A stretch of 64,000 nucleotides of DNA, from positions 75,769-139,768 of the forward strand of contig JAAXWR010000001.1 in NCBI GenBank assembly GCA_013334825.1, in the 5' to 3' direction. Position numbers and translations under genes: made by a program. This document shows, piece by piece, positions 3,690-63,546 of the stretch (position 1 is the first letter of the stretch; every line of letters begins with the position of its first letter). The notes under the pieces are model-generated. The model saw only the letters and a list, made by a program, of their open reading frames with translations. It ran no database searches and had not been told where the DNA came from. The stretch comes from Candidatus Yonathbacteria bacterium. GTDB lineage: Bacteria > Patescibacteriota > Minisyncoccia > Phycocordibacterales > JACNGX01.

Positions 3690-3960
3690 AGAGGTCCCAT
3701 GTTCCTGCCATGAACCCTACGTGGTTCATGGCGAGTCCTGGAACGCGCACGAAGCGCAGTACGTATTCATTCTTATGCCGTCCTCGCTAGTATTTATAAG
3801 ACTGAGGTCCCAGGTTTTTACCATGAACCCTACGTGGTTCATGGCGAGTTCTGGAACGCGCACGAAGCGCAGTACGTATTCATTCTTATGCCGTCCTCGC
3901 TAGTATTTATAAGACTGAGGTCCCAGGTTCCTGCCGTGAACCACGTAGGGTTCATCGCGA
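3690..3960 (+). repeat. ~2.5 tandem ~114-nt units, each a copy of the tRNA-Ile 3' half with a 29-nt palindrome (CCATGAACCCTACGTGGTTCATGG) inserted in the T-loop
   Basis: ATAAGACTGAGGTCCCAGGTT-[palindrome]-GAGTCCTGGAACGCGCAC repeated at 3690-3800 and 3805-3915, with a partial third copy. Confidence 0.8.
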
Positions 3961-4046
3961 GCCCCGGAGTTTGTGTGTGTGAAAAAAGATATGTTTCTGC
4001 AATATTGAGCCTGAGGATATTTGATTATAAATGAGCCCCACTAATT

Positions 4047-16120: not shown

Positions 16121-16315
16121 TCATTTTTTATTGTCATAGATTGAATCCTGCATAGTTTTAGTTGTTTTTCGATATCACTTTTATACATAACGGATGTGCA
16201 TAAAGTGAAATTAGTATCAGTCCATTCACTTTTTCAGTAACAATGTCATTTGCAAAAGTGGGGATGAATCCACATTGTGAGTAACATAAAACAGTCGTCT
16301 TCGTATGTTCCCTAG

Positions 16316-16400
16316 CACTATGCACTGTGCACCACGTAGGATGCACAGCAAGCCACGTGGGATGCACAGCACGCCATGTAGGGTGCAGGGCAAGCGTACT
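16316..16400. repeat. three tandem ~21-nt repeats (CCACGTRGGATGCACAGCA); inverted copy at 49681-49790
   Basis: Direct reading; RC matches the 49681-49790 block. Confidence 0.8.
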
Positions 16401-16455
16401 CGTTTGTACTTCGTAACCACTATACTATTCGTAAACAAAAACGAACTCAAAAAAA

Positions 16456-21983: not shown

Positions 21984-22018
21984 CCATATAATGACGGCAC
22001 TCAAACGTTAAAAATACG

Positions 22019-22190: not shown

Positions 22191-22228
22191 TATAAGCTCG
22201 GTGCTCTAACCAATTGAGCTATGCGCCC
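22191..22228 (-). pseudogene. partial duplicate of the tRNA-Ile(UAU) 5' half
   Basis: TATAAGCTCGGTGCTCTAACCAATTGAGCTATGCGCCC identical to the corresponding part of the 22019-22092 gene. Confidence 0.8.
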
Positions 22229-22762: not shown

Positions 22763-25015
22763 ATGACATTAGAACAACGAAAGCCGATTCATCTTGCTGA
22801 CTCAATTGACATACACACCCGTATGTCTGAACCACAAAAGAAGGCACTTGCTTCACTTGGTATTGTGACGGTACACGATATGCTGTATCACTTTCCGGCG
22901 CGATATCATCATATTGCGTCAATGAAACGTATTGCTGACCTTGTTATGGGTGATGAAGCGGTCGTGTATGGTAAAGTCATATCTGCAAAGACGACCAAAG
23001 CATATAAGAAAAAGATTCCCATTGGCGAGATTACGATTGATGATGGGACAGGTAAGATAAAAGCAGTGTGGTTTCATCAGGCATTTGCTGCGGCTGTGCT
23101 CAAAGAGGGAACCTATGTGAAGCTTGCCGGTCGTGTACAGCAAAAAAAGACGGGAGAATTGTATTTGGGTAATCCGGAATTTGAAAAAACGAAAGCACTT
23201 CCTATTGATGTGGGGAATTCACTTTTTGCTGGTGGTCTGCATGATGATGTGTTTGCTGCGCCAGTATATCCAGAGAGTAGAGGTGTATCATCGCGGTTTA
23301 TCGCCCATGCTGTGGAACGATTGTTTGCGCGTGGCGCGCTTGATGGATTGGCAGATCCTATCCCAGAGGATATGTTGAAGCGGTATAATCTGCCGACACT
23401 CGCGACCGCACTCGTGTGGATACATACCCCTCAGAAAGAAGCTGATGCGCGCGCAGCGCGCAAACGATTTGCGTTTGAAGAAATATTTTTTATTCAGCTC
23501 GCACGTCAGCGGGCACGTCGTGCGTATCGAGACCTTGAAGCATTTGATATTGATACCGACCGCGAGGCGATTGCACCGTTTCTCAAGAAGTTTTCTTTTC
23601 CGCTTACTGGAGCGCAAGAACGCGCGATTGATGCAATACTGTCGGACATGGGAAGTGGAGAGCCGATGACGCGACTCCTTGAGGGAGATGTGGGGTCGGG
23701 AAAGACGGCGGTCGCTGCCGCGACCGCCTACGCCACCGTCTCCACACGCCCAAAAGGACAGGACTTCGGGACACTCCAGGTTGCCTATATGGCGCCAACG
23801 GAGATTCTTGCGACGCAGCATTTTCTCTCATTTATTGAATATTTTAGAAACACACCGATACAGGTGGGGCTTATTACGGGAAGTGGATGTAAAAAGTTTC
23901 CGTCAAAAAACGACCCCAATAAACCGACGGATATTTCTCGTGCGCAACTTTTGAAATGGGTGGCAAGTGGAGAAATCGCGATTGTGTTCGGCACACATGC
24001 ACTTATTCAAAAGAGCGTGAAGTTTAAACATCTTGCATACGCTATCATTGATGAACAACACCGATTCGGTACACATCAGCGCGGAGCGCTGATACGCGGA
24101 AGTGACGCGGACACTACGCAGACTCAAGCGGAACATACGCAGAATAATGCAGATGGTACTTCGCGACCTTCCGCGTATGTTCCGCATCTGCTGTCGATGA
24201 CGGCGACACCGATTCCGCGCACGCTCGCACTCACTATCTATGGTGATCTTGACCTCACACTTTTGGATGAATTGCCTGCGGGACGCAAGGATGTGAAAAC
24301 TGCGGTGATTCCTCCCGATAGACGTGATGAAGTGTATACGCATATGCGTATTGCTCTCGATGAAGGACGACAAGCGTATGTGATATGTCCGCGTATTGAC
24401 GAACCAGATCCGGACAAAGCGGCAGCGCTCAATACCAAGTCGGTGAAGGCCGAGGCGGAGCGTCTCAAGCGCAATATCTTTCCTGACAAGACAATAGATA
24501 TTCTGCACAGTAAAATGACACCGAAAGAAAAAGATGCGACGATGGCGCGTTTTGCGGCGGGGGAGACAGATATACTTGTCGCGACATCTGTTGTTGAGGT
24601 GGGTGTGAATGTCCCCAATGCGACGGAGATTATTATCGAGGGTGCGGAGCGTTTTGGTTTGGCACAGCTCCATCAATTGCGCGGGCGTGTGCAACGAAGC
24701 GCATATCAGGCGCACTGTTATTTGTTTACTGACTCAGGCGCAGTTACTGCGTCTGAACGATTGGGAGCATTTGTAAAAGCGCGTGACGGTTTCGCACTCG
24801 CGGAAATGGATTTATCATTGCGAGGCTCGGGCGAACTGGGAGGAGGGAAGCAATGGGGCGTGACAGATGTCGGCATGGAAGCAATCAAAAATCTTCCTAT
24901 GGTAGAGGCAGCGCGCAATGAAGCGACGCGTATGTTGGATGAAGATGTTGATTTTCAGAGGCACCCACTTATTGCGCAAAGAGTCAAAGACGCGGAAGAG
25001 ATGCATTTTGAATAG
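22763..25015 (+). CDS. recG: ATP-dependent DNA helicase RecG
   Basis: N-terminal wedge region (LASLGIVTVHDMLYHFPARY), FPLTGAQERAIDAIL, Walker A GDVGSGKT, DEQHRFG, RecG C-terminus; TACAAT 6 nt upstream of the ATG. Confidence 0.88.
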   Translation: MTLEQRKPIHLADSIDIHTRMSEPQKKALASLGIVTVHDMLYHFPARYHHIASMKRIADLVMGDEAVVYGKVISAKTTKAYKKKIPIGEITIDDGTGKIKAVWFHQAFAAAVLKEGTYVKLAGRVQQKKTGELYLGNPEFEKTKALPIDVGNSLFAGGLHDDVFAAPVYPESRGVSSRFIAHAVERLFARGALDGLADPIPEDMLKRYNLPTLATALVWIHTPQKEADARAARKRFAFEEIFFIQLARQRARRAYRDLEAFDIDTDREAIAPFLKKFSFPLTGAQERAIDAILSDMGSGEPMTRLLEGDVGSGKTAVAAATAYATVSTRPKGQDFGTLQVAYMAPTEILATQHFLSFIEYFRNTPIQVGLITGSGCKKFPSKNDPNKPTDISRAQLLKWVASGEIAIVFGTHALIQKSVKFKHLAYAIIDEQHRFGTHQRGALIRGSDADTTQTQAEHTQNNADGTSRPSAYVPHLLSMTATPIPRTLALTIYGDLDLTLLDELPAGRKDVKTAVIPPDRRDEVYTHMRIALDEGRQAYVICPRIDEPDPDKAAALNTKSVKAEAERLKRNIFPDKTIDILHSKMTPKEKDATMARFAAGETDILVATSVVEVGVNVPNATEIIIEGAERFGLAQLHQLRGRVQRSAYQAHCYLFTDSGAVTASERLGAFVKARDGFALAEMDLSLRGSGELGGGKQWGVTDVGMEAIKNLPMVEAARNEATRMLDEDVDFQRHPLIAQRVKDAEEMHFE

Positions 25016-25250
25016 GGACAAAAAAATCGTATCCGCGTTTTGCGGTGGGTTTACCCTCCGTTCACATTTCGCAGTCATTTCACATTGTCCGTTCGCATTC
25101 GCTCACAGAGCCTCTCCCGTGTTTGCTTCGTATTCGCTCTATGGCTTCGTTGAAGTCCGTGGTAATTCTAGAAAAGCGGATTGTGTTGAGGCATAAATAA
25201 GTTTATATATGCTTGCCCCACCCAACCAGTGCGCGCACAAGCAGTGCCCC

Positions 25251-27452
25251 CTAAACTTTCTCAAGTAGTGTGAGAAAGTCCTTCAATTTTTGTATTTTTT
25301 CTGGTTCACGCAATTTAATGGTCTCGTGTTGATCGTGCATATGCTCGTGCCAGTTGTTACTTAGAATCTCATCTTTGACTGCACATTTTCCATCGATTTT
25401 TTCTAGATACGCAGATATGCTCCCGTCTGCAAGCGTGCTTTTATCAAGCATGAAGTAATACTTATGTCTCAAGATTCTCTCTAGACATTTTCGGACTTTT
25501 CCTATGGCTTCGTCTACATTACGAGAGTTATCTGCCGCATCTTTAATATATTTGATATCTTTGAAATACTGCTCTTCAATCAACTCATCCACGTCACATT
25601 CTTCAAGTACTGAACCAAATGTTTTAGAATGTTTAATTCTTAGTATTTTCGTATCTGAAGAAGGCAACTTTTCTTGCAGTCTTCCCAAAAAACTATCATC
25701 ATGAGTTAGGATAATTACCTGTTCTGGTAAATCATCACTCTCATTTCTAATATCAATTATTGCTTTTGCTAGATAGTCTTTTCTGTTTGAATCAAAACTT
25801 GAAAAAGGATCATCTAGAATGACTATTTTACTTTTCAAATTTGAATCCGTTTTAAGACTTGAAATGAAAAAAGCCATTGCTAAGAGTCTTCGATCACTGT
25901 CACTGAGTGTGTTTCCAAAATACGCTTTATCCAAAGGCTCTTCATCTGACTGAGAACGTTTATTGGAAATTGGTACTGTTTCCCCATCGATAACAAACTC
26001 ATAATCAAGAAAGTGTGCATCAGATCGTGTGAGATTTGATTTGCTATTTAACTTTTGTATTGTAAAATCTGCCTTTAAAACATCCCTCAAGACCATGTTG
26101 ATTTGTTCCTGATTCTTTTCAATTGTACTTTTCGTTATCTTGTCTATCTTTTTCCGTAATGCATCAATTTTTACTTTCTTCATTTCAACAGCTTTTCCAG
26201 CTTGCTGGTATTTTTCTGCGAGAGTTACACCTTCTTTACTATGGCGGTATTGCGACAATTGAAACTGTTTCAATTCATTTTCAAGACCTTGTAATTTGAG
26301 AGCAGAAAACTCTTGTGTTTTTAATTCATTTAAAATTGAATGTAATTTTTTGATTTCTGAAACAAATACTTGAAAATGACTGTCTTCCGCTTCACAATTG
26401 ATAGGATGATTCAGATTTTTTAGTTTTTTTGCAACATCTTCATCAAGAGCTTTTTTGTTTTCCAACAATAGTTTTTTATCTAAAATATCTTCACACTTAA
26501 CCCCGAGAGAAGTGAATTTCGCTATTTCTGCTTCTGGATCAAAGCGCAAGAATCTCTCTCCGTATGTTTCTATTTCTTGTCGTGTTGTTGTGTAAGTTTC
26601 CCCGAAGACTTTTTTGAAATCCTTAATCAGATCGGTGACTGGTGCAAGATTTTGTCCGCAGAATATACATGCATCTGAATCTTTTTTCAACAAGGTGACA
26701 CCGTCTGCCAGAAAATTCTTTGACGCATGTTCATCATTCCAGTGATTGCGAATATGTTCATCAATATTCTTTTCAGCGGATGTGTCCAGGGTTTTCTGCA
26801 TTGCAGCAAAAAAATTATCAAACGTACTTGCAAGAGGTGATGTTGGTACTAACTGCTTGAGTGCATCACTATTTTTTAGTCTTTGAATTTTTTCTTTTTT
26901 CTTTTCAACCTCCTCATCAATATTTGTAATCTCTATGGCTTTCAAGAAAAAATCAAATGTGCCTAGATCATATTTTGTATATTCTGTTTTTATTTGGTCA
27001 CGTTGTTTCTCTAGAGCATCTTGTTCATCACGCAATTCCTTTAACTTCGTGACTTTTTGTCCCACGTTTTCACCAACAAAGATGCCGTGTAAAGATGATT
27101 TGTGTTTATGATCTATCTCGTCACCTACAAAAACTGAATTATGTATAAAATTGTTATCAAATATAGCAATGTTTGGATTATTCCAATTTCCATTTGCTAG
27201 AGTTAGATGCTTGTTGCTACTATCTAAAATATCAATCACGATGTCGCCAGTGTGCCCAAAACTTTTCTTTCCTTTTATACATTTCTGATCAGAATTTTTG
27301 AGAGATCTAAAAATGGTGGTTAGGGTACTTTTACCATAGGTGTTGTAACCAAAAATGATTGTATGTTTAAGAAACCTTAAATCGTCATTGCCACCATTGG
27401 CAAAGTTTTTGAATTTTCCCAACCCCTCAATTTTTAATATCTTACTAATCAT
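25251..27452 (-). CDS. SMC-like ABC ATPase (733 aa) with a coiled-coil insert carrying CxxC (CIFCGQ, res ~262) and a ~150-aa C-terminal extra domain; candidate RloC/PrrC-like anticodon nuclease
   Basis: Walker A GYNTYGKST, signature-like LSDSDRRLLAMAF, Walker B/D-loop IVILDDPFSSFD, H-loop ILTHDD; C-terminus VRKCLERILRH; last gene of the R-M operon. Confidence 0.45.
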   Translation of the reverse strand: MISKILKIEGLGKFKNFANGGNDDLRFLKHTIIFGYNTYGKSTLTTIFRSLKNSDQKCIKGKKSFGHTGDIVIDILDSSNKHLTLANGNWNNPNIAIFDNNFIHNSVFVGDEIDHKHKSSLHGIFVGENVGQKVTKLKELRDEQDALEKQRDQIKTEYTKYDLGTFDFFLKAIEITNIDEEVEKKKEKIQRLKNSDALKQLVPTSPLASTFDNFFAAMQKTLDTSAEKNIDEHIRNHWNDEHASKNFLADGVTLLKKDSDACIFCGQNLAPVTDLIKDFKKVFGETYTTTRQEIETYGERFLRFDPEAEIAKFTSLGVKCEDILDKKLLLENKKALDEDVAKKLKNLNHPINCEAEDSHFQVFVSEIKKLHSILNELKTQEFSALKLQGLENELKQFQLSQYRHSKEGVTLAEKYQQAGKAVEMKKVKIDALRKKIDKITKSTIEKNQEQINMVLRDVLKADFTIQKLNSKSNLTRSDAHFLDYEFVIDGETVPISNKRSQSDEEPLDKAYFGNTLSDSDRRLLAMAFFISSLKTDSNLKSKIVILDDPFSSFDSNRKDYLAKAIIDIRNESDDLPEQVIILTHDDSFLGRLQEKLPSSDTKILRIKHSKTFGSVLEECDVDELIEEQYFKDIKYIKDAADNSRNVDEAIGKVRKCLERILRHKYYFMLDKSTLADGSISAYLEKIDGKCAVKDEILSNNWHEHMHDQHETIKLREPEKIQKLKDFLTLLEKV

Positions 27453-27458
27453 ACAAAT

Positions 27459-28229
27459 TTATTTCTTCATTCTTTGCTTGGCGATTCTTGCATATTCTTT
27501 ATCTTGCTCAATTCCAATCCATTTTCGACCATATTTTTTTGCTACATATGTCGTTGTGCCACTTCCCAAAAATGGATCAAGAACAATATCGCCTTTGTTG
27601 GAGCTTGCTAAAATAATACGCGTGAGCATTTCCTCAGGCTTTTGCGTAGGATGCAATGCGCGACCATTATCGCCACGCAAGCGCTCTTTTCCTTGGACAA
27701 GCGGAAGTTCCCAGAAATCACGCATTTGTTTTAGGTTTCCGTCCTTTTGCTTATTAGGATTTATTTTCTTTATTTCTTCGTAGTTGAATGTCCATCCACT
27801 TCCTTTTACAGCCCAAATAACAAACTCAGTTGAGTGTGTGAAGACACGCCTTGTCATATTCGGCATGGCGTTTGTCTTGTACCAAGTGATGACGTTATTT
27901 ACTTTGTAATCAAGTTGTTTTAATACAATCATCACCTCCGCGATGTTGTGATAACTACAGGCGACATAAATTGATCCTTTATCTTTCAAAGCTCTATCGC
28001 AAGCACCCAGCCATTTTCTCGTAAATTGTAAATATTCCGGTGCAGACATTTTGTCCCATTCTTCGTCGACCATGTACCAATCTCCGCCAGTCTTGTTGCC
28101 TTTCCAGTGCAAACCGTTTCCAGATAGATTATAAGGAGGATCAGCAAAAACCAAATCAATAGATTTTTCCTCAACCTTTTTATTGAGAGTGTCTATACAG
28201 TCTCCATTGTAAATAATATTTGTTTTCAT
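27459..28229 (-). CDS. beta-class DNA methyltransferase (N6-adenine or N4-cytosine, DPPY motif)
   Basis: DLVFADPPYNL (motif IV) N-terminal, VLDPFLGSGTT (motif I) C-terminal. Confidence 0.85.
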   Translation of the reverse strand: MKTNIIYNGDCIDTLNKKVEEKSIDLVFADPPYNLSGNGLHWKGNKTGGDWYMVDEEWDKMSAPEYLQFTRKWLGACDRALKDKGSIYVACSYHNIAEVMIVLKQLDYKVNNVITWYKTNAMPNMTRRVFTHSTEFVIWAVKGSGWTFNYEEIKKINPNKQKDGNLKQMRDFWELPLVQGKERLRGDNGRALHPTQKPEEMLTRIILASSNKGDIVLDPFLGSGTTTYVAKKYGRKWIGIEQDKEYARIAKQRMKK

Positions 28230-28232
28230 GTT

Positions 28233-30056
28233 TTATGTTTGAGAAATAAGGCTTTCTTGCCATACTGAAATGGTATTTGGAATATTTCGTAACCATTCAT
28301 TTGAATCGCTAAATAATTTTGATGACTCCAAGATTTCATCATACAGGCGAGCAATTTCTGAGTGTTGCAAAAATCTCTTTTTTGATTTCATTTGCACCAA
28401 CACTTTCAACACAGAAACAAATTGTCTAATCGAAAGAGGTATGATTCTTTGTGGTTGTCCCTCGTACTCGTATTTTATTGCTGTCCAGAAAGTGTTTACT
28501 GTATCTCTGTGCAACTTCGGGGCAATAAACAGACAATAGGAAGGCTTGTTATTATGTTTTTGTTCGAAGTCTCGTAAATGTCGCATAACTGGTTGACCTT
28601 CGTTGTACCATTGATCGCGACCATTCAGCATCGTGACTTCACAAATGGCATTAAAACTATCGTAAAAACACTCTATGTCTGGTGTGTTTGCGGGGGCAGT
28701 AAATGTTGGTTCATTGTCGTCACCGACAGGATAGTTTGGTTGAATTTTCAATGCATCATTTAAAGCGTGCAATCCAAGTGCAGATAATTTTTCAAGTAAG
28801 ATCGGACGATCATCAAAATCAAAAATGTTTTCAAGATCATTTATGTAAGATTCGACCTGTTCAATCGCTTGAGATTTACTGTGACTTTCTGCGTTTTGTA
28901 GTTCTCGTCTATATACTCTCAATTCTGTAATATATTTTCTTAGTTCATCAACCTGCATTTCCTGGTGACTCTTAATTTCAAGATTATCTTCCTGCAAAGT
29001 AGATTCGTATTCACGTATTTCCTCAATAAGTCTTTCGGCAATCTCATTATATTTTTCTGCAGTTTCCCAAGGTAGTTTCGGTTCCGAAATATCGGAAATG
29101 TAAGCAAGATAATCTTCTTTTGATTCGAAATGTTTTGCTTGTGCGTTATCATATGCAAGCAGAGAATCAATTTCGATTTTTCTCCTTTCCTCAAGATCAA
29201 CATAGAAACCACCGCCACGAATATGAATGTATCGAGTTAAGCGGAAATAACGGATTGCATTATCTCCATAATCTTGCAAATTGCTTAATAAGCCACCTAT
29301 TTCTTGTTCATCATCGGTTTCTAGAAAATCACTTGCAAACCGCCGTTTGTAAGCATCAAATATTTCTTTTTGCTCCTGCTTTGTTTTGCCACTTAATTCA
29401 TCTCGCAAGGTGATGATTTTTTCTGCATACATGCTGATACTTTGATAATGTATCAAAGTAGGAGCAAAGAGAGACAATTCTTTTTTACTAATGCCTTTTG
29501 CATTGTTGCCACGCGCAGTCTCTTTTTGGTTAACTTCGTTGATTAAATGGAGTGTTCCTATAAACGGTTTGATATCGTAGTCTCCGTTATCTTGATAATC
29601 TCGACTGTCTGGATTTGGTATTTGCCACTTTAAGAAGCTTCTAAAAAATATTTCTCCAAAATCAAAATCATCTTTTAGAAATAATTTTCCTAATTCTGTT
29701 ATTTTTACCTTGTTATCTTCGATGGCGACAAGCCCTATTTTTTTGAGAGGGTTCATTGACTGCCTCCCACGCATTGCAGGATCTTCATAATTTTTCGCAT
29801 TAAAAATTTCTTCCGCCTGCTCAAGAGAGATGTCTCTTGATGGATCATCAACCAAATCAACATGATCTTGCATAAGTCCATTGTAGAATTGGCGACTTCC
29901 ATAACCGTATATTCTGTTCTGGATCAGCAAAATTTGATATTTCTTTTGGTTCTCAAGATTCCACTCAAAATTTTCAAGCTGTTGCAAAACAATCAAGAAA
30001 TTTCTCAATCTCTCAGGATTTCGTAATGTTGTTGTGATTGACCAGGGTTTTTTCAT
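28233..30056 (-). CDS. putative restriction endonuclease (607 aa; size and two-MTase context suggest a Type IIS, AlwI-family-like enzyme)
   Basis: AT-rich ORF sandwiched between two MTase genes with 2-3 nt spacers; possible PD...ExK-like PDIE...CEVT near the C-terminus; family assignment is inference only. Confidence 0.4.
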   Translation of the reverse strand: MKKPWSITTTLRNPERLRNFLIVLQQLENFEWNLENQKKYQILLIQNRIYGYGSRQFYNGLMQDHVDLVDDPSRDISLEQAEEIFNAKNYEDPAMRGRQSMNPLKKIGLVAIEDNKVKITELGKLFLKDDFDFGEIFFRSFLKWQIPNPDSRDYQDNGDYDIKPFIGTLHLINEVNQKETARGNNAKGISKKELSLFAPTLIHYQSISMYAEKIITLRDELSGKTKQEQKEIFDAYKRRFASDFLETDDEQEIGGLLSNLQDYGDNAIRYFRLTRYIHIRGGGFYVDLEERRKIEIDSLLAYDNAQAKHFESKEDYLAYISDISEPKLPWETAEKYNEIAERLIEEIREYESTLQEDNLEIKSHQEMQVDELRKYITELRVYRRELQNAESHSKSQAIEQVESYINDLENIFDFDDRPILLEKLSALGLHALNDALKIQPNYPVGDDNEPTFTAPANTPDIECFYDSFNAICEVTMLNGRDQWYNEGQPVMRHLRDFEQKHNNKPSYCLFIAPKLHRDTVNTFWTAIKYEYEGQPQRIIPLSIRQFVSVLKVLVQMKSKKRFLQHSEIARLYDEILESSKLFSDSNEWLRNIPNTISVWQESLISQT

Positions 30057-30058
30057 AA

Positions 30059-31867
30059 TTATTTTGTTACTTTACAGTAGAAAATGCGTTCCGCATTATC
30101 TTCTCCGTTACTTTTTCCTGTCGTAAAGGCTTTGTAATCTTTTTCAAAAATCTCAACATCACCCTTGTCGTTTAGAATTTGTAGAATTTCATCATCACTC
30201 ATACGCGCATTAGAACGCCCATCTTTGGAATCTCCAGTATTATTGTATGAAAGTAAAATATGCTCGCAGTTTGCATTTCTGATAAGGTCTGCAAAAGCAC
30301 TCGTTGCACTTTTTAGGCAATAGTCACTTTTAATGTGAGAGCGATCCATTTTTTTACCAATCCCAATAACCTCTGGCTTTTTCCATTCCGCAAGATTTTC
30401 TAAAAGATGGTAGGCATCCGAGTATTGACGTGAATTATATGGTGGATCTACGTATAAAACATCACAAGAAATTTTTCTGATAAGGGTATTTGCGTCTTCT
30501 CTATAAATTTCATTATTTGTGTTGCGAATGTAATCAACATCAGGAATCAAAAGCTTTATGGGCTGCAACATGTCTAGCTTTTTACGAAAAGCGTCATAAT
30601 GACCAACGGTATTGGCAACTTTATCGACAGCATAAAGCAAGGAACAAATCAAAATATTTTTTTCTTCCTCATTTTCTGCTATCTTTTCAATTTCTGCACG
30701 CATTGCCCCAATCTTTCTTGCGTTTTCTTTTGTAAAATACGTCCCGCCAAAATGTTCAGAAAAATAGTTTTCCTTGTCGTTCGATAAATTATTAAGAACC
30801 TCTATCTTTTCAGAGATGCCTTGTCGCATGTCCCGATTGACTCCCAAAAACGCATATAGGCAAGCATAATTTGCTGAGAGAAAATCATTGGAAATGATTT
30901 TGATTTCTGGACTATTGAACCTTTCTCCAACGACACCTGTGCCTGCAAAAATATCGCAAAGTGAATTGATTGATCCACATTTTTCAGAAATTATGTCTTC
31001 GATAAATCCAAGCAATTTGTGTTTATTTCCCAAATATCTTCTGTTTTGAAGTTGGAAATACCCGCTTTTTGATGCTTGGGGCTGGAAGTAATGTTTATCA
31101 ATTTTTTTTATACTTACTTCGTAAGTCGGTTTTTCAATTTCTAATAGACCAAACAGCGTTTCTTGCATCCCGTCAGCGACATAATCAAAACCTTTATTTT
31201 GATCCTTTAGTTTTTCGTAAAAACTGTAATATCCTTTTTGAGAGACAATGACAAAATCAATGACAGAAATTCCCATTATTTCTCCTGCTTGTGCTATTTT
31301 TTCAACAATTTGAATATCTTTCTCGCTCGGCGTTGAATCACCAGACGGATGATTGTGTATAAGAATCACGCTTGCGGCGTTAAGTTCTGTTGCAGGATAG
31401 AAAATCTCTCTCGGGTGCAGTAGTGTCTTATCAAGAAGTCCAACACTGATAACTTCTTTTTTTAATAAAATATTTCTTGCATTCAGATACAGACAAACGA
31501 GATGTTCTTTTTTCTTATCTCTCAAATCGTAAGTTAAAGAGATAACATCTTGAGAATTACTGATTTTTATTTCGTTTGTCCGATCATCTGCATAAAATCT
31601 TTTTACTAAAGAAATTGCTGACGCAATTTGCAACGCTTTTGCTTGTCCGATTCCAGAGATTTCTTGCAAATTATCAACGGTAATATTCAAAAAGTTTTTG
31701 CCAAATTTCCTAATTATTTCTTGAGACAATTCTTGAACATTCGTGCCTTTGATACCGCTACCGAGCAAAATAGCCAAAAGATCACTTTTTGAAAGTGCTT
31801 CAGGACCTTTCTTGAGAAATCTTTCTCGCGGTCTATCAATTTTTGGAATATCTTTGATCTTTGTCAT
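30059..31867 (-). CDS. fusion protein: N-terminal RadC-like JAB/MPN domain + C-terminal Dam-family (alpha-class, D12) N6-adenine DNA methyltransferase
   Basis: RadC: HLVCLYLNARN...ILIHNHPSGDSTPSEKDIQI; MTase: RRYLGNKHKLL (motif I region), DVLYVDPPYNS (motif IV). Confidence 0.8.
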   Translation of the reverse strand: MTKIKDIPKIDRPRERFLKKGPEALSKSDLLAILLGSGIKGTNVQELSQEIIRKFGKNFLNITVDNLQEISGIGQAKALQIASAISLVKRFYADDRTNEIKISNSQDVISLTYDLRDKKKEHLVCLYLNARNILLKKEVISVGLLDKTLLHPREIFYPATELNAASVILIHNHPSGDSTPSEKDIQIVEKIAQAGEIMGISVIDFVIVSQKGYYSFYEKLKDQNKGFDYVADGMQETLFGLLEIEKPTYEVSIKKIDKHYFQPQASKSGYFQLQNRRYLGNKHKLLGFIEDIISEKCGSINSLCDIFAGTGVVGERFNSPEIKIISNDFLSANYACLYAFLGVNRDMRQGISEKIEVLNNLSNDKENYFSEHFGGTYFTKENARKIGAMRAEIEKIAENEEEKNILICSLLYAVDKVANTVGHYDAFRKKLDMLQPIKLLIPDVDYIRNTNNEIYREDANTLIRKISCDVLYVDPPYNSRQYSDAYHLLENLAEWKKPEVIGIGKKMDRSHIKSDYCLKSATSAFADLIRNANCEHILLSYNNTGDSKDGRSNARMSDDEILQILNDKGDVEIFEKDYKAFTTGKSNGEDNAERIFYCKVTK

Positions 31868-31869
31868 AA

Positions 31870-32079
31870 TTATTTCAAAAGGGTATCGATACTCACGCTA
31901 AGCACCTTGGCGACCTTTTCCATTGTCCTAATTGTAAGATTTTGTTTGCCGTTCTCGACATTGCTAATATATGCTCGGTCTAATCCCAAATCTCGGCAAA
32001 TGTCGCCTTGCGACATGCCTTTTTCGAGCCGAATCTTTTTCATGTTTTCGCCAAATTTTTGTGCTGTGGTTTTTGCCAT
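31870..32079 (-). CDS. XRE-family helix-turn-helix transcriptional regulator (candidate R-M controller protein)
   Basis: MAKTTAQKFGENMKKIRLEKGMSQGDICRDLGLDRAYISNVENGKQNLTIRTMEKVAKVL; first gene of the operon. Confidence 0.75.
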   Translation of the reverse strand: MAKTTAQKFGENMKKIRLEKGMSQGDICRDLGLDRAYISNVENGKQNLTIRTMEKVAKVLSVSIDTLLK

Positions 32080-32239
32080 AATGTATGAAAACTTATCAAC
32101 ATTGGTATTATAGCATTCTATTGTGTTTTGGCTCAATGTTAAGCTATAATACAAGTGCGCAAAACAGTATTTTTATGAAGCGTCGGAACCAAAACCAAAA
32201 TTTTCCTTTCCATTTTTTGTCGGCTCCGCTCCTACGCAC

Positions 32240-32620
32240 CGCCGAAAAAGGGGAGGGAGGGAGGGATTCTCTCCTTACAGGAGCAGTACAGGTTTTCCAT
32301 TTTTTTGGAGCAAAGCACCTCAAACATATGGGAGAACCTTTTTCCGCGACATCCCCGCTCTTTGCTCCGCAAAGGACGGGGTGCGCGGACCCGCCCAGCT
32401 CTTTCAAAAAGGGCTGGGCGGGCGAATCATTTCTGGGAGGGATTCGGTCACCAGTTCTAAGCATATTGCTCCAAGTATTCGCAATCCGCTAAGAACTCGC
32501 GACCCCGTCGCCGCGCTCCGACAAGATAAATCTTGTCGGGCTTCGCGCGCGGCTTTTTCGAATCCCTCCCTCTCTCGCAACATATAAATCGCCGGGCGAA
32601 TTCTCGCCCGGCTCATTATG
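32240..32620. repeat. GC-rich non-coding stretch with multiple partial copies of the tRNA-Ser T-arm/acceptor motif (GGAGGGATTC / GAATCCCTCC) and a long inverted repeat abutting the tRNA 3' end
   Basis: Copies at ~32246, ~32436, 32560-32583 (inverted) and in the tRNA itself; no coherent ORF; overlapping ORFs on both strands are spurious. Confidence 0.6.
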
Positions 32621-32623
32621 TTG

Positions 32624-32710
32624 CGGAGAGGGAGGGATTCGAACCCTCGAGACGATTGCTCGCCTAACACCTTAGCAGGGTGCCCCGTTCGACCGCTCCG
32701 GCACCTCTCC
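32624..32710 (-). tRNA. tRNA-Ser (anticodon GCU), long variable arm
   Basis: RC: GGAGAGG-TG-CCGGAGCGGTCGAACGG-GGCACC-CTGCTAA-GGTGT-[long variable arm]-GAGGGTTCGAATCCCTC-CCTCTCC-G. Confidence 0.88.
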
Positions 32711-32737
32711 AAATTATTTCTTTGTATTATTTAGCTT

Positions 32738-32818
32738 TCTCGGTGATGACGATTGCTCGCCTCACGCCTTAGCTGGGATGGGAGCGAGACCCGGAAGCTC
32801 CCATGGTCGACCGCTCCG
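32738..32818 (-). pseudogene. degenerate partial copy of tRNA-Ser (5' two-thirds) with a 27-nt hairpin insertion, lacking T-arm and 3' end
   Basis: GACGATTGCTCGCCTCACGCCTTAGCTGGG-[ATGGGAGCGAGACCCGGAAGCTCCCAT]-GGTCGACCGCTCCGGCACCTCTCC versus the intact gene. Confidence 0.75.
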
Positions 32819-32960
32819 GCACCTCTCCAATATAACAAGCGCCTTTAGGAAAGTGCTTGGTTTGGACAGTGTAGCATAGTTTTTTTGATTTGAGGAGACG
32901 GATGCGAGGTTTGTAAAAAATCTGGACGGTTACCCGTCCAGTATTATTTCGGTATGTTTG

Positions 32961-33340
32961 TCAGTCGTCACCTTCGTAGGTGTCATGTCTTGAATTGTTG
33001 TGGGAGGCGACCGAGAACGCCTCTTTTAGTTGCTCAATATCCGTTCTGTCGAAAACAATTTGGACGGATTTGTTGTCGTAGGAGCGTTCTCCTATTTTGT
33101 GCCAGTCATGCGACTGTATATATCCGTCTGATCGCATATATCTCCAGAGATTTTTCTCCAGATCAATTTCGAGTTTGTTTTCGCCTTCTTTTTGCGGGAA
33201 GTTCTCGACGAGATCCATTGCAAGGAAATTATTTCCCGCATTGTAGAGATAACACAGATTGTCCATGTCGGTAGTGTTGTGATAGTTGATGTTTTGCCAG
33301 GTACTTTGTTCATGGGGCAATCTATACAATTGAGTGTATT
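32961..33340 (-). CDS. hypothetical protein; start uncertain (longest ORF would overlap the divergent hydrolase gene)
   Basis: ORF with ordinary composition; weak. Confidence 0.25.
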
Positions 33341-33369
33341 CTGTCAAGTATTTGGTATAATCTAACTTT

Positions 33370-34260
33370 ATGCCTTTCACCCAAAAACACGTCCAATCTG
33401 CCGACCTGGGCATCTTCACCGAATCGCTTGGCAATCCCACTGATCCGGCGGTGCTTCTCATCATGGGTGCGATGAATCCGGGGTTGTGTTGGTATGACGC
33501 TTTTTGTGAAGCACTTGTTGCGCGGGGGTTTTTCGTTATTCGGTATGATCATCGCGACACGGGACAATCTTCTGTCGTTGATTTTGCTATACATCCATAT
33601 GACATGGACGACCTCACGAGCGATGCGCTCGCGGTTCTTGATGGATATGGTATTGCCAAAGCGCATATCGTCGGGCTCTCTATGGGCGGATATATCGGAC
33701 AGATTCTTGGCGCACGCCATGGCGACCGCGTTCTCTCGCTCACGCTCATCTCAACAACTGTTGATCATCGTCCGTATATGGAGGCGACGACATTCGCACG
33801 ACGTGGGGAGTATGACCTGCCGTTTCCCGAGGAACGGTATCTGGCGTACCTCAAAAATGTGGCAGAGCATCCGCCGACAACACCCGAAGGATTTGCTGAA
33901 GCACGTATGCGCGGATGGGAAGTTATCTGTGGTGGACCGCTCGCGGGCGCGGATAGGGAAGCGCTCGTTGCGATGCTTGCCGATATTGACGCACATTCGC
34001 CGCACCCGGCGTCGGCATGGAATCATGGTCCAGCAGTCGCACGTTCCACTGTGCGGACTCAACTTGTGCAAGACATTCATGTGCCGACACTCATTATTCA
34101 TGGAGAGAACGACCCGTGTTTCCCTGTTGCGCATGGAGAGCGTCTGCACGCGCTCATCCCTGATGCGAAACTCGTCGTGGTTCCTGGTATGGGGCATATG
34201 TACACACTCACGGAAGCGTTGTCACTTGTGGATGTGATTGCGGGTGAAATATTATTATAG
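33370..34260 (+). CDS. alpha/beta-fold hydrolase; GC-rich relative to the genome
   Basis: PAVLLIMGAMNPGLCW, nucleophile elbow VGLSMGG, C-terminal GMGHM; TATAAT 8 nt upstream of ATG. Confidence 0.75.
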   Translation: MPFTQKHVQSADLGIFTESLGNPTDPAVLLIMGAMNPGLCWYDAFCEALVARGFFVIRYDHRDTGQSSVVDFAIHPYDMDDLTSDALAVLDGYGIAKAHIVGLSMGGYIGQILGARHGDRVLSLTLISTTVDHRPYMEATTFARRGEYDLPFPEERYLAYLKNVAEHPPTTPEGFAEARMRGWEVICGGPLAGADREALVAMLADIDAHSPHPASAWNHGPAVARSTVRTQLVQDIHVPTLIIHGENDPCFPVAHGERLHALIPDAKLVVVPGMGHMYTLTEALSLVDVIAGEILL

Positions 34261-43520: not shown

Positions 43521-43550
43521 AAACAGCGGGCATACGCCCGCTGTTTTTAT
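43521..43550 (+). terminator. Rho-independent terminator after clpB (AAACAGCGGG-CATA-CGCCCGCTGTTTTT)
   Basis: Perfect hairpin with T-run. Confidence 0.8.
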
Positions 43551-43551
43551 T

Positions 43552-43742
43552 TGTGCGCCGGATTGGAATCTCACTGCTCTCGAACACAACTCTTACTGCT
43601 GCAAGAGTTGTGTTCGATGCGCTCGCGAAACCCACGGTTTCGCGGTCATCCTCCACAGGGGCGTTCTGCCGCCCCCGACCCCCTGCAGATTCGAATCCAA
43701 CCAGGCGCACGAAAAAAATCCCCATGTGGGGATTTTTCCTTG
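43552..43742. other. structured ~190-nt element: direct copy of the tRNA-Tyr 3' end (43552-43567), internal perfect hairpins, inverted copy of the tRNA-Tyr 3' end (43697-43722), then a bidirectional terminator AAAATCCCCA-TG-TGGGGATTTT
   Basis: Direct reading of inverted and direct repeats; long-range ~20-bp stem possible between 43552-43567 and 43705-43722. Confidence 0.6.
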
Positions 43743-43826
43743 TGCGCCGGGTTGGATTCGAACCAACGTAGGCATAAAGCCGACAGATTTACAGTCTGTT
43801 GCGATTGACCACTCCGCCACCGACGC
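43743..43826 (-). tRNA. tRNA-Tyr (anticodon GUA), long variable arm
   Basis: RC: GCGTCGG-TG-GCGGAGTGGTCAATCGC-A-ACAGA-CTGTAAA-TCTGT-CGGCTTTATGCCTAC-GTTGGTTCGAATCCAAC-CCGGCGC-A. Confidence 0.85.
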
Positions 43827-43868
43827 AGTAAAAAGTATTGTAGCATATTTAGGTATAATGGAAAGGCA

Positions 43869-45898: not shown

Positions 45899-45956
45899 GG
45901 GGACGTATTTTGATGATATCGCGCGGTATATAGTTTTATGATATGCTGTTTTATAC

Positions 45957-46027
45957 GGGAGATTAGTTAAGTGGCATAACGGCGGTCTCCAAAACCGCGG
46001 TCGGGGGTTCGATTCCCTCATCTCCCG
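45957..46027 (+). tRNA. tRNA-Trp (anticodon CCA)
   Basis: GGGAGAT-TA-GTTAAGTGGCATAAC-G-GCGGT-CTCCAAA-ACCGC-GGTCG-GGGGTTCGATTCCCTC-ATCTCCC-G. Confidence 0.85.
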
Positions 46028-46400
46028 CCCTGCACCACGTAGGGTGCAGGGCAGGCCTCGCCATTAACAATGTTTGGCACGAAACGTCATAGGCCTGTCC
46101 TGTGCCATACGTGGTATGCAGGGCGTGCCATGAACCCCACGTGGTTTATGGCCGCCCGAGTTTATGTGTACATTTGTGCGTTTGAAATCTTTTATATAGA
46201 GTTATGTGATAAAGGGATAACCCTGCACCACGTAGGGTGCAGGGCAGGCCTCGCCATTAACAATGTTTGGCACGAAACGTCATAGGCCTGTCCTGTGCCA
46301 TACGTGGTATGCAGGGCGTGCCATGAACCCCACGTGGTTTATGGCCGCCCGAGTTTATGTGTACACTTGTGCGTTTGAAATCTTTTATATAGAGAGAGGT
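46027..46400. repeat. two tandem ~190-nt multi-hairpin repeat units abutting the tRNA-Trp 3' end; third copy at 49474-49660
   Basis: Unit = CCCTGCACCACGTAGGGTGCAGGG ... CAGGCCT..AGGCCTG ... GTGCCATGAACCCCACGTGGTTTATGGC ... GATAAAGGGATAA; near-identical copies by direct reading; ORFs 46070..46285 and the N-terminal part of 46263.. are translations of the repeat. Confidence 0.85.
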
Positions 46401-46403
46401 TAT

Positions 46404-46667
46404 ATGTACTACACGTACGTTTTACAAAGCAAGAAAGATGATAAGTTATACATCGGATTTTCTTCAGATTTGAAGAAAAGATTATGTGAACATAATGATG
46501 GTTTGGTCGTCTCTACCAAACATCGGAGACCGTTTGAGTTGATTTTTTATGAGGCATTTAAACAAAAAGAGGATGCAATGAGAAGGGAAGTATATTTTAA
46601 AACTAATAAAGGGAAGTCTTCTCTCAAACAAATACTTAGAAACTCTTTCTCAGGACTAAAAGAATAA
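46404..46667 (+). CDS. GIY-YIG nuclease-domain protein (87 aa)
   Basis: MYYTYVLQSKKDDKLYIGFSSDLKKRLCEHNDG...RRPFELIFYEAF; GAGAGG SD-like upstream. Confidence 0.75.
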   Translation: MYYTYVLQSKKDDKLYIGFSSDLKKRLCEHNDGLVVSTKHRRPFELIFYEAFKQKEDAMRREVYFKTNKGKSSLKQILRNSFSGLKE

Positions 46668-46689
46668 CAAAAGAAGACCCTCTACACAT

Positions 46690-46745
46690 GCGCAAAACAT
46701 GCTCTAAAAAGCATGTTTTGCGCATGTGTATGTCTTTGCGTCAAG
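46690..46745. terminator. long perfect palindrome (20-bp stem ACACATGCGCAAAACATGCT / AGCATGTTTTGCGCATGTGT)
   Basis: Direct reading. Confidence 0.6.
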
Positions 46746-46804: not shown

Positions 46805-47347
46805 ATGAATTCATTGCAACAAAAAGAAGTGGTGCATTCTCTTCCTGTTTTCTTGGGTTTATACGCAAAAAAAGATCGACGGGGTAAAAATATATACGGT
46901 GTATATCGTTGCGCATGCGGAAAACTATTTTTTGCAAGGAAAAGTCATGTTGAAAAAGAGGCTTCACTGAGTTGCGGTTGTTATCGAAAGAAAAAAGCGA
47001 CCGTACATGGTATGTCCAATACTGCCGAGTATCGTACGTGGACAGATATGCTTCAACGATGCAAAAATCCAAATAATCCTTTTTTTAAGGATTATGGAGA
47101 AAGAGGTATTTTTGTGGATCCACGGTGGCTCGGAGAACATGGTTTCCAACATTTTTTTGAAGATATGGGAGAACGTCCTGGAAAAGGATATAGTCTGGAG
47201 CGCAATGATAATGATGGTCCGTACGCACCATATAATTGTCGATGGGCAACAGCGTGGGAACAAGCGCAGAATAGACGCCCAGTATCTCAAGGGAATGCTT
47301 CGGTGTTGGAGTACTTAAAAGAGCCAACAGTATACAGTCCATTTTAA
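46805..47347 (+). CDS. phage-type HNH endonuclease (HNH_3/AP2-like)
   Basis: [34 protein letters not shown]...[40 protein letters not shown]. Confidence 0.7.
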
Positions 47348-48566: not shown

Positions 48567-49427
48567 ATGATATCTCTTCGTGAAGCTCTGGGTGAAGCAG
48601 TTCGTGACGGTCGCGCAATTGCACATTTTAATATTACGGGTATCGATATGGTACATGCTGTGGTTCGTGCCGCGCGCAAAGTTGGTGACCCAGTCATCAT
48701 CGGTGTCTCTGAAGGGGAACGGGATTTTTTTGGTGTGAGGCAAATTGTTGCTGTTGTTGACAGTCTCCGCAAAGAAACAGGGCACCCTATCTTTTTAAAC
48801 GCTGACCATACATATTCAGTGGAACGTGTCGAAGAGGTGATTGACGCAGGTTTTGATGCAGTCATTTATGATGGTGCGAAGTTGTCGTTCGAGGAAAATG
48901 TTGCTCATATGAAGGCGTCTGTTGCGTACGCACGTGTCTCTGGACGTGATGTGCTCCTTGAAGGGGAACTCGGATATATTGGCGGTTCATCAAAAGTGCT
49001 CGATGCTATTCCCGAAGGAGTAACTCCTGAATCTATGACGACACCAGAGCAAGCTCGCACGTTTGTTGAGGAGACGGGTATTGATTTGTTTTCTCCATCC
49101 GTGGGGAATATCCATGGTATGTTGCGACACGCTCCCAATCCACGTCTTGATATTTCCCGTGTGAAAGAAATCGCCGAAGTATGTGGAAAGCCGTTGGTAC
49201 TTCATGGCGGTTCAGGGACATCAGACGAAGATTTTCGTGCCGCGATAGACGCGGGGATTCGTATTGTTCATGTGAGTACCGAGCTTCGTCGCGCGTATCG
49301 TGAGACACTTGATGAAACGTTTCGTGCCAATCCAGACGAAGTTGCGCCGTATAAATATTTACAGCCTGGGGTGGAAGCAGTGGAAAAGGTGGCGGAAGAG
49401 CGAATGAGACTCTTTGGAAGAAAGTGA
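48567..49427 (+). CDS. fba: class II fructose-bisphosphate aldolase
   Basis: MISLREALGEAVRDGRAIAHFNITGIDMVHAVVRAA...NADHTYS...LEGELGYIGGSS...HGGSGTSDEDF. Confidence 0.85.
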   Translation: MISLREALGEAVRDGRAIAHFNITGIDMVHAVVRAARKVGDPVIIGVSEGERDFFGVRQIVAVVDSLRKETGHPIFLNADHTYSVERVEEVIDAGFDAVIYDGAKLSFEENVAHMKASVAYARVSGRDVLLEGELGYIGGSSKVLDAIPEGVTPESMTTPEQARTFVEETGIDLFSPSVGNIHGMLRHAPNPRLDISRVKEIAEVCGKPLVLHGGSGTSDEDFRAAIDAGIRIVHVSTELRRAYRETLDETFRANPDEVAPYKYLQPGVEAVEKVAEERMRLFGRK

Positions 49428-49473
49428 GTATAAGTTTCAAGATTGATTTCGAAGTATGAACTGGTATGCTTGC

Positions 49474-49790
49474 CCTGCACCACGTAGGGTGCAGGGCAGG
49501 CCTCGCCATTCACAATGTTTGGCACGAAACGTCGTAGGCCTGTCCTGTGCCATACGTGGCATGCAGGGCGTGCCATGAACCCTACGTGGTTTATGGCCGC
49601 CCGAGTTTACGTGCACACCTGTGTGTCTGAAATCTTTTATAGTAGAATTGTATGATAAAGGGATAACCCTGCAACCCGCGTGGCGTGTTGTGCATCTTAC
49701 GTTGCCTGCTGTGCATCCACGTGGCTTGCTGTGCATCCTACGTGGTGCACAGTGCACAGTGCTAGGGAACATACGAAAGCGCGGCGGGCT
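49474..49790. repeat. third copy of the ~190-nt multi-hairpin repeat (49474-49660) followed by four tandem ~21-nt repeats (49681-49790), inverted relative to 16316-16400
   Basis: Direct sequence comparison. Confidence 0.85.
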
Positions 49791-49833
49791 CAAAGCCCGC
49801 CGCGCTTAATTGCTAAAAACAAAAAACTGGACA

Positions 49834-50208
49834 TTAGTGTCCAGTGTGTGGGATGTTTTTCCATTCAAGCGGTATACCACGATATTTCGCAAGTGCAATG
49901 ACTGCCTGAAGGAACGAGACCTTTTTTCGCATCATGTAGTAGTCAATAATGGTGCCGTGACGTCCACAACCGTAGCATTTCCAACGGAAGGTTTGGTCAC
50001 GTTTTGATTTTTGTGGGAAAAATACTACAAATGAAGGGTGGTGATCCGGTTTTTCGAATACTCGAAGGAGAGGACAGCGTGTCTTTGTCATTCCATATCC
50101 CAGAGGTGTGAATTTCTGGAATTCTGGTAACAGAGAGGCGTATGTCGGAAATTCTTCTTGAGTTAATTCCTTCAACACGTATTCAAAATTTACGATGTTT
50201 CTTTTCAA
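49834..50208 (-). CDS. standalone CHC2-type (DnaG-primase-like) zinc-finger protein
   Basis: CPLLRVFEKPDHHPSFVVF...QTFRWKCYGCGRHGTIIDYYMMRKKVSFLQAV (CxxH...CxxC); hairpin terminator at 49786-49812. Confidence 0.6.
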   Translation of the reverse strand: MKRNIVNFEYVLKELTQEEFPTYASLLPEFQKFTPLGYGMTKTRCPLLRVFEKPDHHPSFVVFFPQKSKRDQTFRWKCYGCGRHGTIIDYYMMRKKVSFLQAVIALAKYRGIPLEWKNIPHTGH

Positions 50209-63421: not shown

Positions 63422-63497
63422 GCCGATGTAGCTCAGTTGGTAGAGCAACGGTTTTGTAAACCGTCGGTCGTCGGTTCGAATCCGACCATCGGCTCCA
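63422..63497 (+). tRNA. tRNA-Thr (anticodon UGU), CCA encoded
   Basis: GCCGATG-TA-GCTCAGTTGGTAGAGC-A-ACGGT-TTTGTAA-ACCGT-CGGTC-GTCGGTTCGAATCCGAC-CATCGGC-T-CCA. Confidence 0.88.
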
Positions 63498-63542
63498 TAA
63501 AAACAGCGCGCTTAGGCTTAAGCGCGCTGTTTTTATGGAGCC
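63498..63542 (+). terminator. Rho-independent terminator whose extended stem includes the tRNA-Thr 3' end (GGCTCCATAAAAACAGCGCGC...GCGCGCTGTTTTTATGGAGCC)
   Basis: Perfect hairpin; outer arms are the tRNA acceptor 3' strand and its inverted copy. Confidence 0.8.
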
Positions 63543-63546
63543 GTTA

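Follow-up and report, generated by a model that had tools for sequence, protein, structure and literature searches.

Free-standing genes for homing endonucleases of the GIY-YIG type are exemplified by the seg genes of phage T4, among which SegB lies within a tRNA cluster. The nuclease Slx1, which carries a related catalytic domain, is structure-specific and acts on branched and stem-loop DNA (PMC7017083). Repetitive extragenic palindromic (REP) sequences have as their hallmark the tetranucleotide GTAG (or GTGG) at the foot of the hairpin, where the REP-associated tyrosine transposase (RAYT) cleaves, and both GTAG- and CGTC-tagged REPs have been described (PMC3733652). Here we report a hairpin family that differs from these in a 64,000-nt stretch of a Candidatus Yonathbacteria genome (assembly GCA_013334825.1, contig JAAXWR010000001.1, positions 75,769 to 139,768 of the forward strand); this whole stretch is called the window, and positions are counted from its first nucleotide. 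The hairpins form a 193-nt unit which occurs twice in tandem between the gene of tRNA-Trp and a gene for a small GIY-YIG nuclease. The searchable literature, including a look-up of the sequences themselves, yielded no description of these hairpins or of the cassette, and no report tying the UPF0213/COG2827 family to tRNA flanks or hairpin repeats.

The tRNA, hairpins and nuclease gene are arranged as a cassette in the order tRNA, one or more hairpins of 24-26 nt whose 5′ arm starts at N74, the nucleotide that follows the discriminator, a gene for a GIY-YIG nuclease of about 85 amino acids, and a terminator. In the window, all its parts lie on the + strand. The tRNA-Trp gene (45956..46027, CCA anticodon; ARAGORN, Rfam 65.2 bits) is intact and does not encode CCA. 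Its Rfam match ends with the discriminator, G46027, and the 193-nt unit starts at the adjoining nucleotide, 46028. Leader unit A (46028..46220) comprises the hairpins H1 (46028-46051; CCCTGCACC-ACGTAG-GGTGCAGGG), H2 (46052-46097), H3 (46099-46123; an inverted and diverged copy of H1) and H4 (46127-46152; GCCATGAACC-CCACGT-GGTTTATGGC), and then a tail (46153-46220). Leader unit B (46221..46403) is 97-99% identical to unit A, and its tail leads into the Shine-Dalgarno-like sequence GAGAGAGG and the nuclease ATG at 46404. Tandem Repeats Finder (TRF) described the array as a 193-nt period at 46028-46394 with 1.9 copies and a 99% match. Repeat search and alignment placed three copies of the unit in the window, at 46028, 46221 and 49473 (identity 100/97/87%); an earlier reading made from the sequence alone (the sequence-only reading) had already recognized the tandem pair right after tRNA-Trp and the third copy near 49.47 kb. 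The gene itself (46404..46667) encodes a GIY-YIG-only nuclease of 87 amino acids of the Slx1/UPF0213 type (Pfam PF01541, 2e-17), and a terminator-like 20-bp hairpin at 46683..46730 closes the cassette. This is the sole terminator-like site, none being present within 46028-46403, where H1 to H4 fail terminator scoring because no T-run lies 3′ of them. Between 45700 and the start of the GIY-YIG gene, one promoter-like site was detected on the + strand; it is located 5′ of tRNA-Trp (45913..45942, ATGATA-18-TATGAT) and is, by its match to the consensus, the candidate promoter of the whole cassette. Apart from tRNA, no Rfam family was matched at the gathering or at the permissive threshold, the best score being that of mir-2253 (22 bits against a gathering value of 47).

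The modules share a consensus of 24-26 nt in which (G)CCNTGNACC and GGTNCANGG(C) enclose a loop of 6 nt, either ACGTRG or, as its complement, CYACGT. First hairpins carry the loop ACGTRG and second hairpins its reverse complement CYACGT, so that modules come as inverted pairs of class I and class II. The sequence-only reading had assigned a CACGTG core to the family; a strict CACGTG is found merely four times in the loci, and the core is better described as ACGT within the 6-nt loop. It had also seen four consecutive hairpins, all of which are indeed present; RNA folding of the unit, however, gave a minimum-energy structure in which H1 pairs with H3 as one long stem resembling that of a REPIN (a REP doublet), so that the hairpins are not independent. 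The fold of the + strand (-90.8 kcal/mol, z -7.8) is far more stable than that of the - strand (-66.5 kcal/mol, z -4.0). Among 38 distinct hairpins, five of the nine stem pairs are altered on both sides; pairing extends to 98% of cells, a percentage that is inflated since the hairpins were chosen for at least seven of nine pairs; sense-strand mismatches are more often G.T (11) than A.C (3). In distant cassettes, the loop has grown to a long apical extension of 15-40 nt with the arms kept, or the stem sequence is unrelated, and a hairpin at N74 persists. This loop extension with the hairpin kept at N74 favours a folded nucleic acid over a duplex site of fixed spacing. The search for target-site duplications yielded no clean case. 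At the leader units, the apparent 9-nt duplication (CCCTGCACC / flanking CCCTGCA(C/A)C) is nothing but the beginning of the following unit, and at the T-loop modules the evidence is ambiguous, since the flanking CG may equally well be the G...C pair that closes a module of 26 nt. The ends of the unit, CCCTGCACC... and ...GGGATAA, are not inverted repeats of each other. With 241 occurrences in the window against an expectation of 237, ACGT is neither depleted nor generally enriched, and host restriction on YACGTR was rejected on the ground that ACGT is not depleted.

The modules recur far beyond this organism. A scan of GTDB genomes for exact matches to the 24-nt H4 pattern returned 21 stretches from at least five phylum-level groups, against about 0.02 expected by chance, which bears out the dispersed palindromic hairpin family proposed by the sequence-only reading. 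By the titles of the records of metagenome-assembled genomes (MAGs), they come from Uhrbacteria, Saccharibacteria, Paceibacterota, Roizmanbacteria, Omnitrophota, Elusimicrobia and Planctomycetia, and from MAGs labelled Gammaproteobacteria, UBP18 and unclassified bacteria. It is the 24-26-nt modules and the architecture of the cassette that are widespread; the whole 193-nt composite was seen in the window organism and in its 99% identical relative L025 only. The association with tRNAs noticed in the window holds for the other genomes too, about three quarters of the 21 sites being at a tRNA 3′ end or within a loop of a tRNA fragment. The hairpin overlaps the 3′ CCA of a tRNA by 3 nt in six stretches, and in seven to eight it lies within the T-loop of a tRNA 3′ fragment beside an intact tRNA; one hairpin lies in a D-loop and another follows an anticodon loop, and about six sites are far from any tRNA. 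Hairpins neighbouring the H4 matches have the design CCNTGNACC-6 nt-GGTNCANGG with differing stems. In 7 of the 21 loci, phmmer detected an orthologue of the window nuclease beside the hairpin; without exception, tRNA, hairpin(s) and gene follow one another in this order on one strand. L012 bears the same array on both sides of the nuclease gene. Of the nuclease genes that had been linked to the repeat from the sequence alone, GIY-YIG is general across phyla, whereas the HNH-like (46805-47347) and CHC2 (49834-50208) open reading frames (ORFs) are local neighbours only, with no phmmer homologue near the hairpins in the 21 loci. Phages were rejected as the vehicle: among 2.9 M viral contigs, two exact modules gave 0 and 1 matches, and neither a tRNA nor the nuclease accompanies the one match.

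The association was also approached from the side of the protein. The window nuclease is a catalytic domain only, without a DNA-binding extension; gene callers prolong its ORF into the leader (P0001, 114 amino acids). Its best solved relatives are the UPF0213 structures 1zg2 (E 3e-12) and 1ywl (7e-11), i.e. BH0048 and EF2693, and the Slx1 nuclease domain comes next. The AlphaFold2 (AF2) model has a predicted local distance difference test (pLDDT) score of 92.8 and, in Foldseek, matches the Slx1 nuclease domain with TMq 0.60-0.71 and I-TevI more weakly. Across 52 homologues, R26, E50, R61, E62 and K66 are invariant, and Y5, Y16, G18 and H30 near-invariant; the named homologues belong to Patescibacteria groups and to Omnitrophica. 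An alignment of eight nucleases, 49-64% identical, was used as query and retrieved 80 metagenomic loci, 75 of them with at least 150 nt upstream. A tRNA ends within 450 nt upstream of the gene in 29 of the 75 relatives, on the strand of the gene in all 29; family hairpins are present in 23, and both tRNA and hairpins in 19. ARAGORN misses pseudo-tRNAs, so that the association with tRNA is undercounted. In at least 15 loci the first hairpin begins 1-3 nt from the tRNA end given by ARAGORN. A hairpin at N74 follows 28 of the 34 gene-linked tRNAs versus 8 of the 44 other tRNAs of the same loci; family hairpins make up four of the eight. The association centres on the closest relatives: in a neighbour-joining tree, every tRNA- or hairpin-linked nuclease falls in one clade, and the other clade has neither tRNA nor hairpin. 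Within the linked clade, subclades follow the type of tRNA: there is a Ser subclade, which includes the Trp offshoot of the window, and an Asn subclade, from which Gln and Met branch off. Cassettes that are truncated or nested and contain 3′ fragments of foreign tRNAs occur in L057, L024 and L107, and L025 has one leader unit where the window has two. These truncations, together with the difference in unit number, are signs of turnover. Logan contigs of the same organism end exactly at the 193-nt unit.

These data lead us to favour, with moderate confidence and jointly with the mechanism that follows, the reading that a gene cassette, anchored at a tRNA and probably selfish, has the 193-nt unit as its non-coding leader. 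The nuclease gene would have no promoter of its own and would be transcribed from the tRNA promoter, in favour of which count the promoter-like site found only 5′ of the tRNA and the terminator found only 3′ of the gene. Processing of the tRNA 3′ end after the discriminator by an RNase Z-type activity would free a messenger with a stable hairpin at its 5′ terminus, and this hairpin may protect the mRNA, throttle it, or both. At the level of DNA, the structure-specific nuclease may cut folded tRNA-gene DNA at its loops and acceptor end, and such cutting would promote the copying of the cassette into tRNA genes in a manner resembling homing or the spread of REPs. The modules would then be recognition or immunity sites for the nuclease, or non-autonomous passengers, which would account for solo modules and for the debris of tRNA fragments.

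Several observations weigh against this reading. At none of the tRNA sites was a pair of filled and empty alleles found. Nucleases of identical sequence always occur in one genomic context (P0098 in 24 contigs, P0045 in 23), and among these contigs no protein was found in different contexts, as would mark recent jumping. The absence of a DNA-binding domain sets the nuclease apart from known GIY-YIG homing endonucleases. Four of the six tRNAs of the window have some hairpin at N74, so that such a hairpin is partly a habit of this genome. The single leader unit of L025 could reflect an assembly collapse. To these are added the dependence of the taxonomic labels on record titles and the selection of the hairpins used for covariation.

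A further proposal, which we regard as tentative and rather doubtful, goes beyond the favoured leader reading: the hairpins may be non-autonomous mobile DNA moved by the mini Slx1/UPF0213-type GIY-YIG nuclease, a new pairing of nuclease and palindrome that would be an analogue of RAYT and REP with another chemistry. The enzyme would act on cloverleaf or cruciform DNA of tRNA genes and cut at N73/N74 as well as in the D-loop, the anticodon loop and the T-loop, in the last of these repeatedly at C56/G57.

A rival explanation is that the hairpins are ordinary RNA-level signals of the tRNA 3′ flank, involved in processing, stability or termination, that the GIY-YIG gene is a co-transcribed cellular gene and that nothing is mobile. 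Consistent with this view are the fixed start of the hairpin at N74 even when the stem is unrelated, the N74 hairpins that tRNA-Ser, -Tyr and -Thr of the window likewise possess, the greater stability of the + strand fold, and the stable contexts of identical nucleases across many samples. We nevertheless consider it unlikely. The exact 24-mers cross phyla while the linked proteins are only 50-65% identical, and modules are found at a distance from tRNAs (at 16.3 and 49.5 kb in the window, and in L006, L009, L011, L014 and L018) as well as inside the loops of dead tRNA fragments. Furthermore, first and second modules are mutually reverse complementary, which is a signature at the DNA level, and H1 to H4 have no T-run and are not scored as terminators. 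Truncated and nested cassettes (L057, L024), the patchy distribution of the gene, and clades that follow tRNA type and not taxonomy also speak against it.

The sequence-only reading had likened the family to REP or bacterial interspersed mosaic elements (BIMEs), or to miniature inverted-repeat transposable elements (MITEs). In its strict form, this would mean classical REP/BIME (REPIN) sequences moved by a Y1 (HUH) transposase of the RAYT type whose gene lies elsewhere in the genome, next to a GIY-YIG gene through a common preference for tRNA flanks. The modules are indeed imperfect palindromes of 24-26 nt that are paired head to head or arrayed, H1 joins H3 in a long hairpin like that of a REPIN, GTAG and GTGG tetranucleotides occur, and CGTC-type REPs are likewise without a known transposase (PMC3733652). 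However, the tetranucleotides are placed in the loop (ACGTAG/ACGTGG) and the hairpin feet are CC..GG, whereas RAYT cuts at the foot; no RAYT (Y1_Tnp), integrase or insertion sequence (IS) transposase was found among the 40 window ORFs scanned with Pfam; and the hairpins are statistically linked to one GIY-YIG clade, both from their own side (7 of 21 loci) and from that of the protein. With GTAG/GTGG away from the foot and the terminal inverted repeats missing, the REP/BIME or MITE assignment was not upheld, and the involvement of a RAYT appears quite improbable. Tyrosine integrases classically target the T-loops and anticodon loops of tRNA genes (tRNA att sites). The palindromes are very improbably duplex-DNA sites for binding or recombination, with a 9-6-9 organization like dif or lox cores, or operators of a CACGTG-specific protein, as the sequence-only reading had considered, here taken to be a dimer: their layout of a 6-bp centre between inverted arms of 9 bp each, the 21-nt array spacing of two helical turns and the insertions in T-loops and anticodon loops would suit such sites, but no recombinase gene was found in the window or beside the hairpins of related loci, the arms covary freely, ACGT occurs at its expected frequency, and related cassettes exchange the 6-nt centre for apical extensions of 15-40 nt with the arms and stem base kept, which is unfit for a dimer of fixed spacing and fits a folded hairpin.

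Besides the cassette behind tRNA-Trp with its leader duplicated in tandem, the window holds a gene-less copy at 49.47-49.78 kb and an inverted remnant at 16.3 kb. The former consists of a left flank (49444..49472, +), 82% common with the inverted locus at 16382-16419, of the solo leader unit C (49473..49665, +; 87% identity to unit A), which has neither tRNA nor nuclease gene, and of the start of a further unit (CCCTGCAACC) that decays into an array of 21-nt half-hairpins and a common right flank (49666..49777, +). The latter (16300..16419, -) is an inverted partial copy: when its reverse complement was aligned to 49420-49830, the flanks and the array matched and the 193-nt unit was missing. 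TRF placed the 21-nt arrays at 16331-16387 and 49679-49745/56, and they are mutually inverted and 98% complementary over 61 nt, in agreement with the derived arrays noted from the sequence alone. These inverted repeats were also considered as the ends of a recent 33-kb inversion, a possibility rejected since the sign of the GC skew is equal inside and outside. Beside the 16.3-kb remnant, a (TAAC)n / AACTAAC microsatellite (16456-16513) lies directly 5′ of a VirD4/TraG-like coupling-protein gene (16533-18686).

The remaining locus of the family lies in the tRNA-Ile region, where the palindrome core had been noticed inside T-loop copies, correctly as it proved. An H4-type hairpin is inserted between C56 and G57 in the T-loop of the first tRNA-Ile 3′ pseudo-half (3707..3732, +), another lies in the T-loop of the second (3821..3844, +), and the third pseudo-half contains an inverted hairpin with the loop ACGTAG followed by leader-tail-like sequence (3933..3990, +). 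In this third copy, a leader tail thus stands in place of the tRNA 3′ end, which connects this locus with the same family. The H4 hairpin CCATGAACCCYACGTGGTTYATGG has six copies in the window (3708, 3821, 3934 as reverse complement, 46128, 46321 and 49573) against 0.00 expected from shuffles, and three of the six lie between C56 and G57 in T-loops of dead tRNA-Ile 3′ halves. In total, 11-12 ACGT-loop hairpins are present at four loci in 64 kb, when adjacent pieces count as one, instead of the at least five loci first claimed; these loci hold 15 of the 17 window copies of the CC(Y)ACGT(R)GG motif in 1.8% of its length.

Both tRNA-Ile genes (GAT and TAT; 3387-3990, +, and 21939-22232, -) show an additional, Russian-doll nesting in the order 5′ half (to the anticodon loop), X, complete tRNA, Y, 3′ half, twice nested at the GAT gene. 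X and Y are inverted repeats of about 30 nt with the common motif ATATGTTCCATATAA..ACG..CACTC. From its layout, the arrangement reads as a tiny element with terminal inverted repeats that carries its own tRNA-Ile, inserts at position 37/38 of tRNA-Ile genes and re-inserts into its cargo tRNA; it encodes no enzyme within. Upstream of both loci (3240-3390, +, and 22270-22345, -), GC-rich mini-hairpins of the types GCCGAAGC / GCTTCGGC / CTTCGCC, with UUCG- and GNRA-like loops, were found. Similar motifs flank the cassette of L012, a Planctomycetia MAG. The stretches have no Rfam match and may represent either a structured leader or a further family of repeats.

Hairpins and tRNA fragments were also observed at other tRNA genes. 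The tRNA-Tyr gene (43540-43830, -) is followed by a terminator and then by an inverted copy of its own T-arm and acceptor 3′ end, beyond which lies a second degenerate 3′ fragment, broken close to the T-loop by an unrelated hairpin of 14 bp (43585-43612). The tRNA-Thr gene (63422-63543) has on its 3′ side a perfect hairpin of 25 bp (63490-63543) in which the 3′ strand of its own acceptor takes part, and in tRNA-Ser (32518-32623) a hairpin starts from N74. The hairpins of tRNA-Thr and tRNA-Ser indicate that hairpins abutting tRNA 3′ ends are common in this genome beyond the ACGT family. At 2900-3450 of L107, a Magasanikbacteria-type contig, the GIY-YIG homologue P0098 lies between a pseudo-tRNA-Cys and an intact tRNA-Cys that overlaps the end of the ORF. 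The T-loop of this first pseudo-tRNA has its 5′ side swapped at C56/G57 for a GC-rich hairpin, and a second pseudo-tRNA-Cys follows.

Among the neighbouring genes, the ORF of 180 amino acids beside the cassette (46805-47347, +) matches the HNH endonuclease families of PHROG (phrog_374, 4e-44) but none of the HNH models of Pfam. It probably represents the DNA-binding portion of a homing endonuclease of phage type, and it was also found in the close relative. The region 24000-34000, with a GC content of 0.36 versus 0.43 for the window and a negative GC skew, includes an N6/N4 DNA methylase gene (27459-28229, -) amid large minus-strand genes and is probably a restriction-modification or defence island. 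Within 1-3636, the 16S rRNA ends at 1470 and tRNA-Ile follows 2 kb downstream, with two protein genes between them (a HAD hydrolase and one unassigned). No 23S rRNA was found in the next 62 kb, and the rRNA operon is unlinked.

The mini GIY-YIG proteins of UPF0213/COG2827 are widespread and their structures have been solved, and no function has been established for them; the tRNA-locked clade and its ultra-conserved hairpin provide a concrete substrate hypothesis. Should the nuclease mobilize the hairpins, this would be the first biological role for this large family and a second REP-type system, mechanistically distinct. The cassette explains repeat-induced assembly breaks and the tRNA-fragment debris in genomes of the candidate phyla radiation (CPR). 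These observations suggest that the tRNA genes of reduced genomes are hubs for tiny selfish cassettes which use tRNA promoters and processing.

Compared with known systems, the family resembles REP/BIME-REPIN sequences and their RAYT in its short, dispersed, multi-copy imperfect palindromes, in its arrays, in the inverted pairs that give long hairpins and, as in REPtrons, in the hairpins that flank a single nuclease-type gene (on both sides in L012); as in REP/BIME elements, the modules are probably non-autonomous. It differs in having a GIY-YIG domain in place of a Y1/HUH transposase, GTAG/GTGG in the loop and not at the foot, a strong preference for tRNA 3′ ends and tRNA loops, and identical modules across phyla. 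Like MITEs and the small palindromes that invade RNA genes (Correia, RPE), the modules are small, non-coding and RNA-structured and insert into genes, including RNA genes; unlike MITEs, the unit lacks terminal inverted repeats as well as a clear target-site duplication, and it has no cognate IS transposase. The best matches of the nuclease in sequence and fold are UPF0213/COG2827 proteins (YhbQ, YazA, BH0048, EF2693) and the Slx1 domain; unlike Slx1, it has neither a PHD/RING finger nor an Slx4 partner.

With free-standing GIY-YIG homing genes such as T4 seg, the cassette shares the catalytic core with its conserved Tyr/Tyr/Arg/Glu, an intergenic position by conserved genes (tRNAs), lineage-specific sites and a patchy horizontal distribution. 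Its junction is precise at N74 and its tRNA type lineage-specific, with identical proteins in one context and no empty allele among the loci. In contrast to those genes, the nuclease has about 85 amino acids without a NUMOD, helix-turn-helix or zinc-finger DNA-binding extension, the genes are chromosomal in CPR and other uncultured bacteria and not in phages, the cassette carries conserved hairpin modules, and homing itself is here a matter of inference. Palindromic GC-cluster and double-hairpin elements of fungal mitochondria (for example PMC7218506) are likewise mobile mini-repeats of compact genomes in which tRNA genes and GIY-YIG genes that stand alone occur together with them; they belong to another sequence family and another host domain, are accompanied by full-length homing endonucleases and have no fixed N74 junction. 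The feature described here is best regarded as a variant of known selfish-cassette and REP-like systems.

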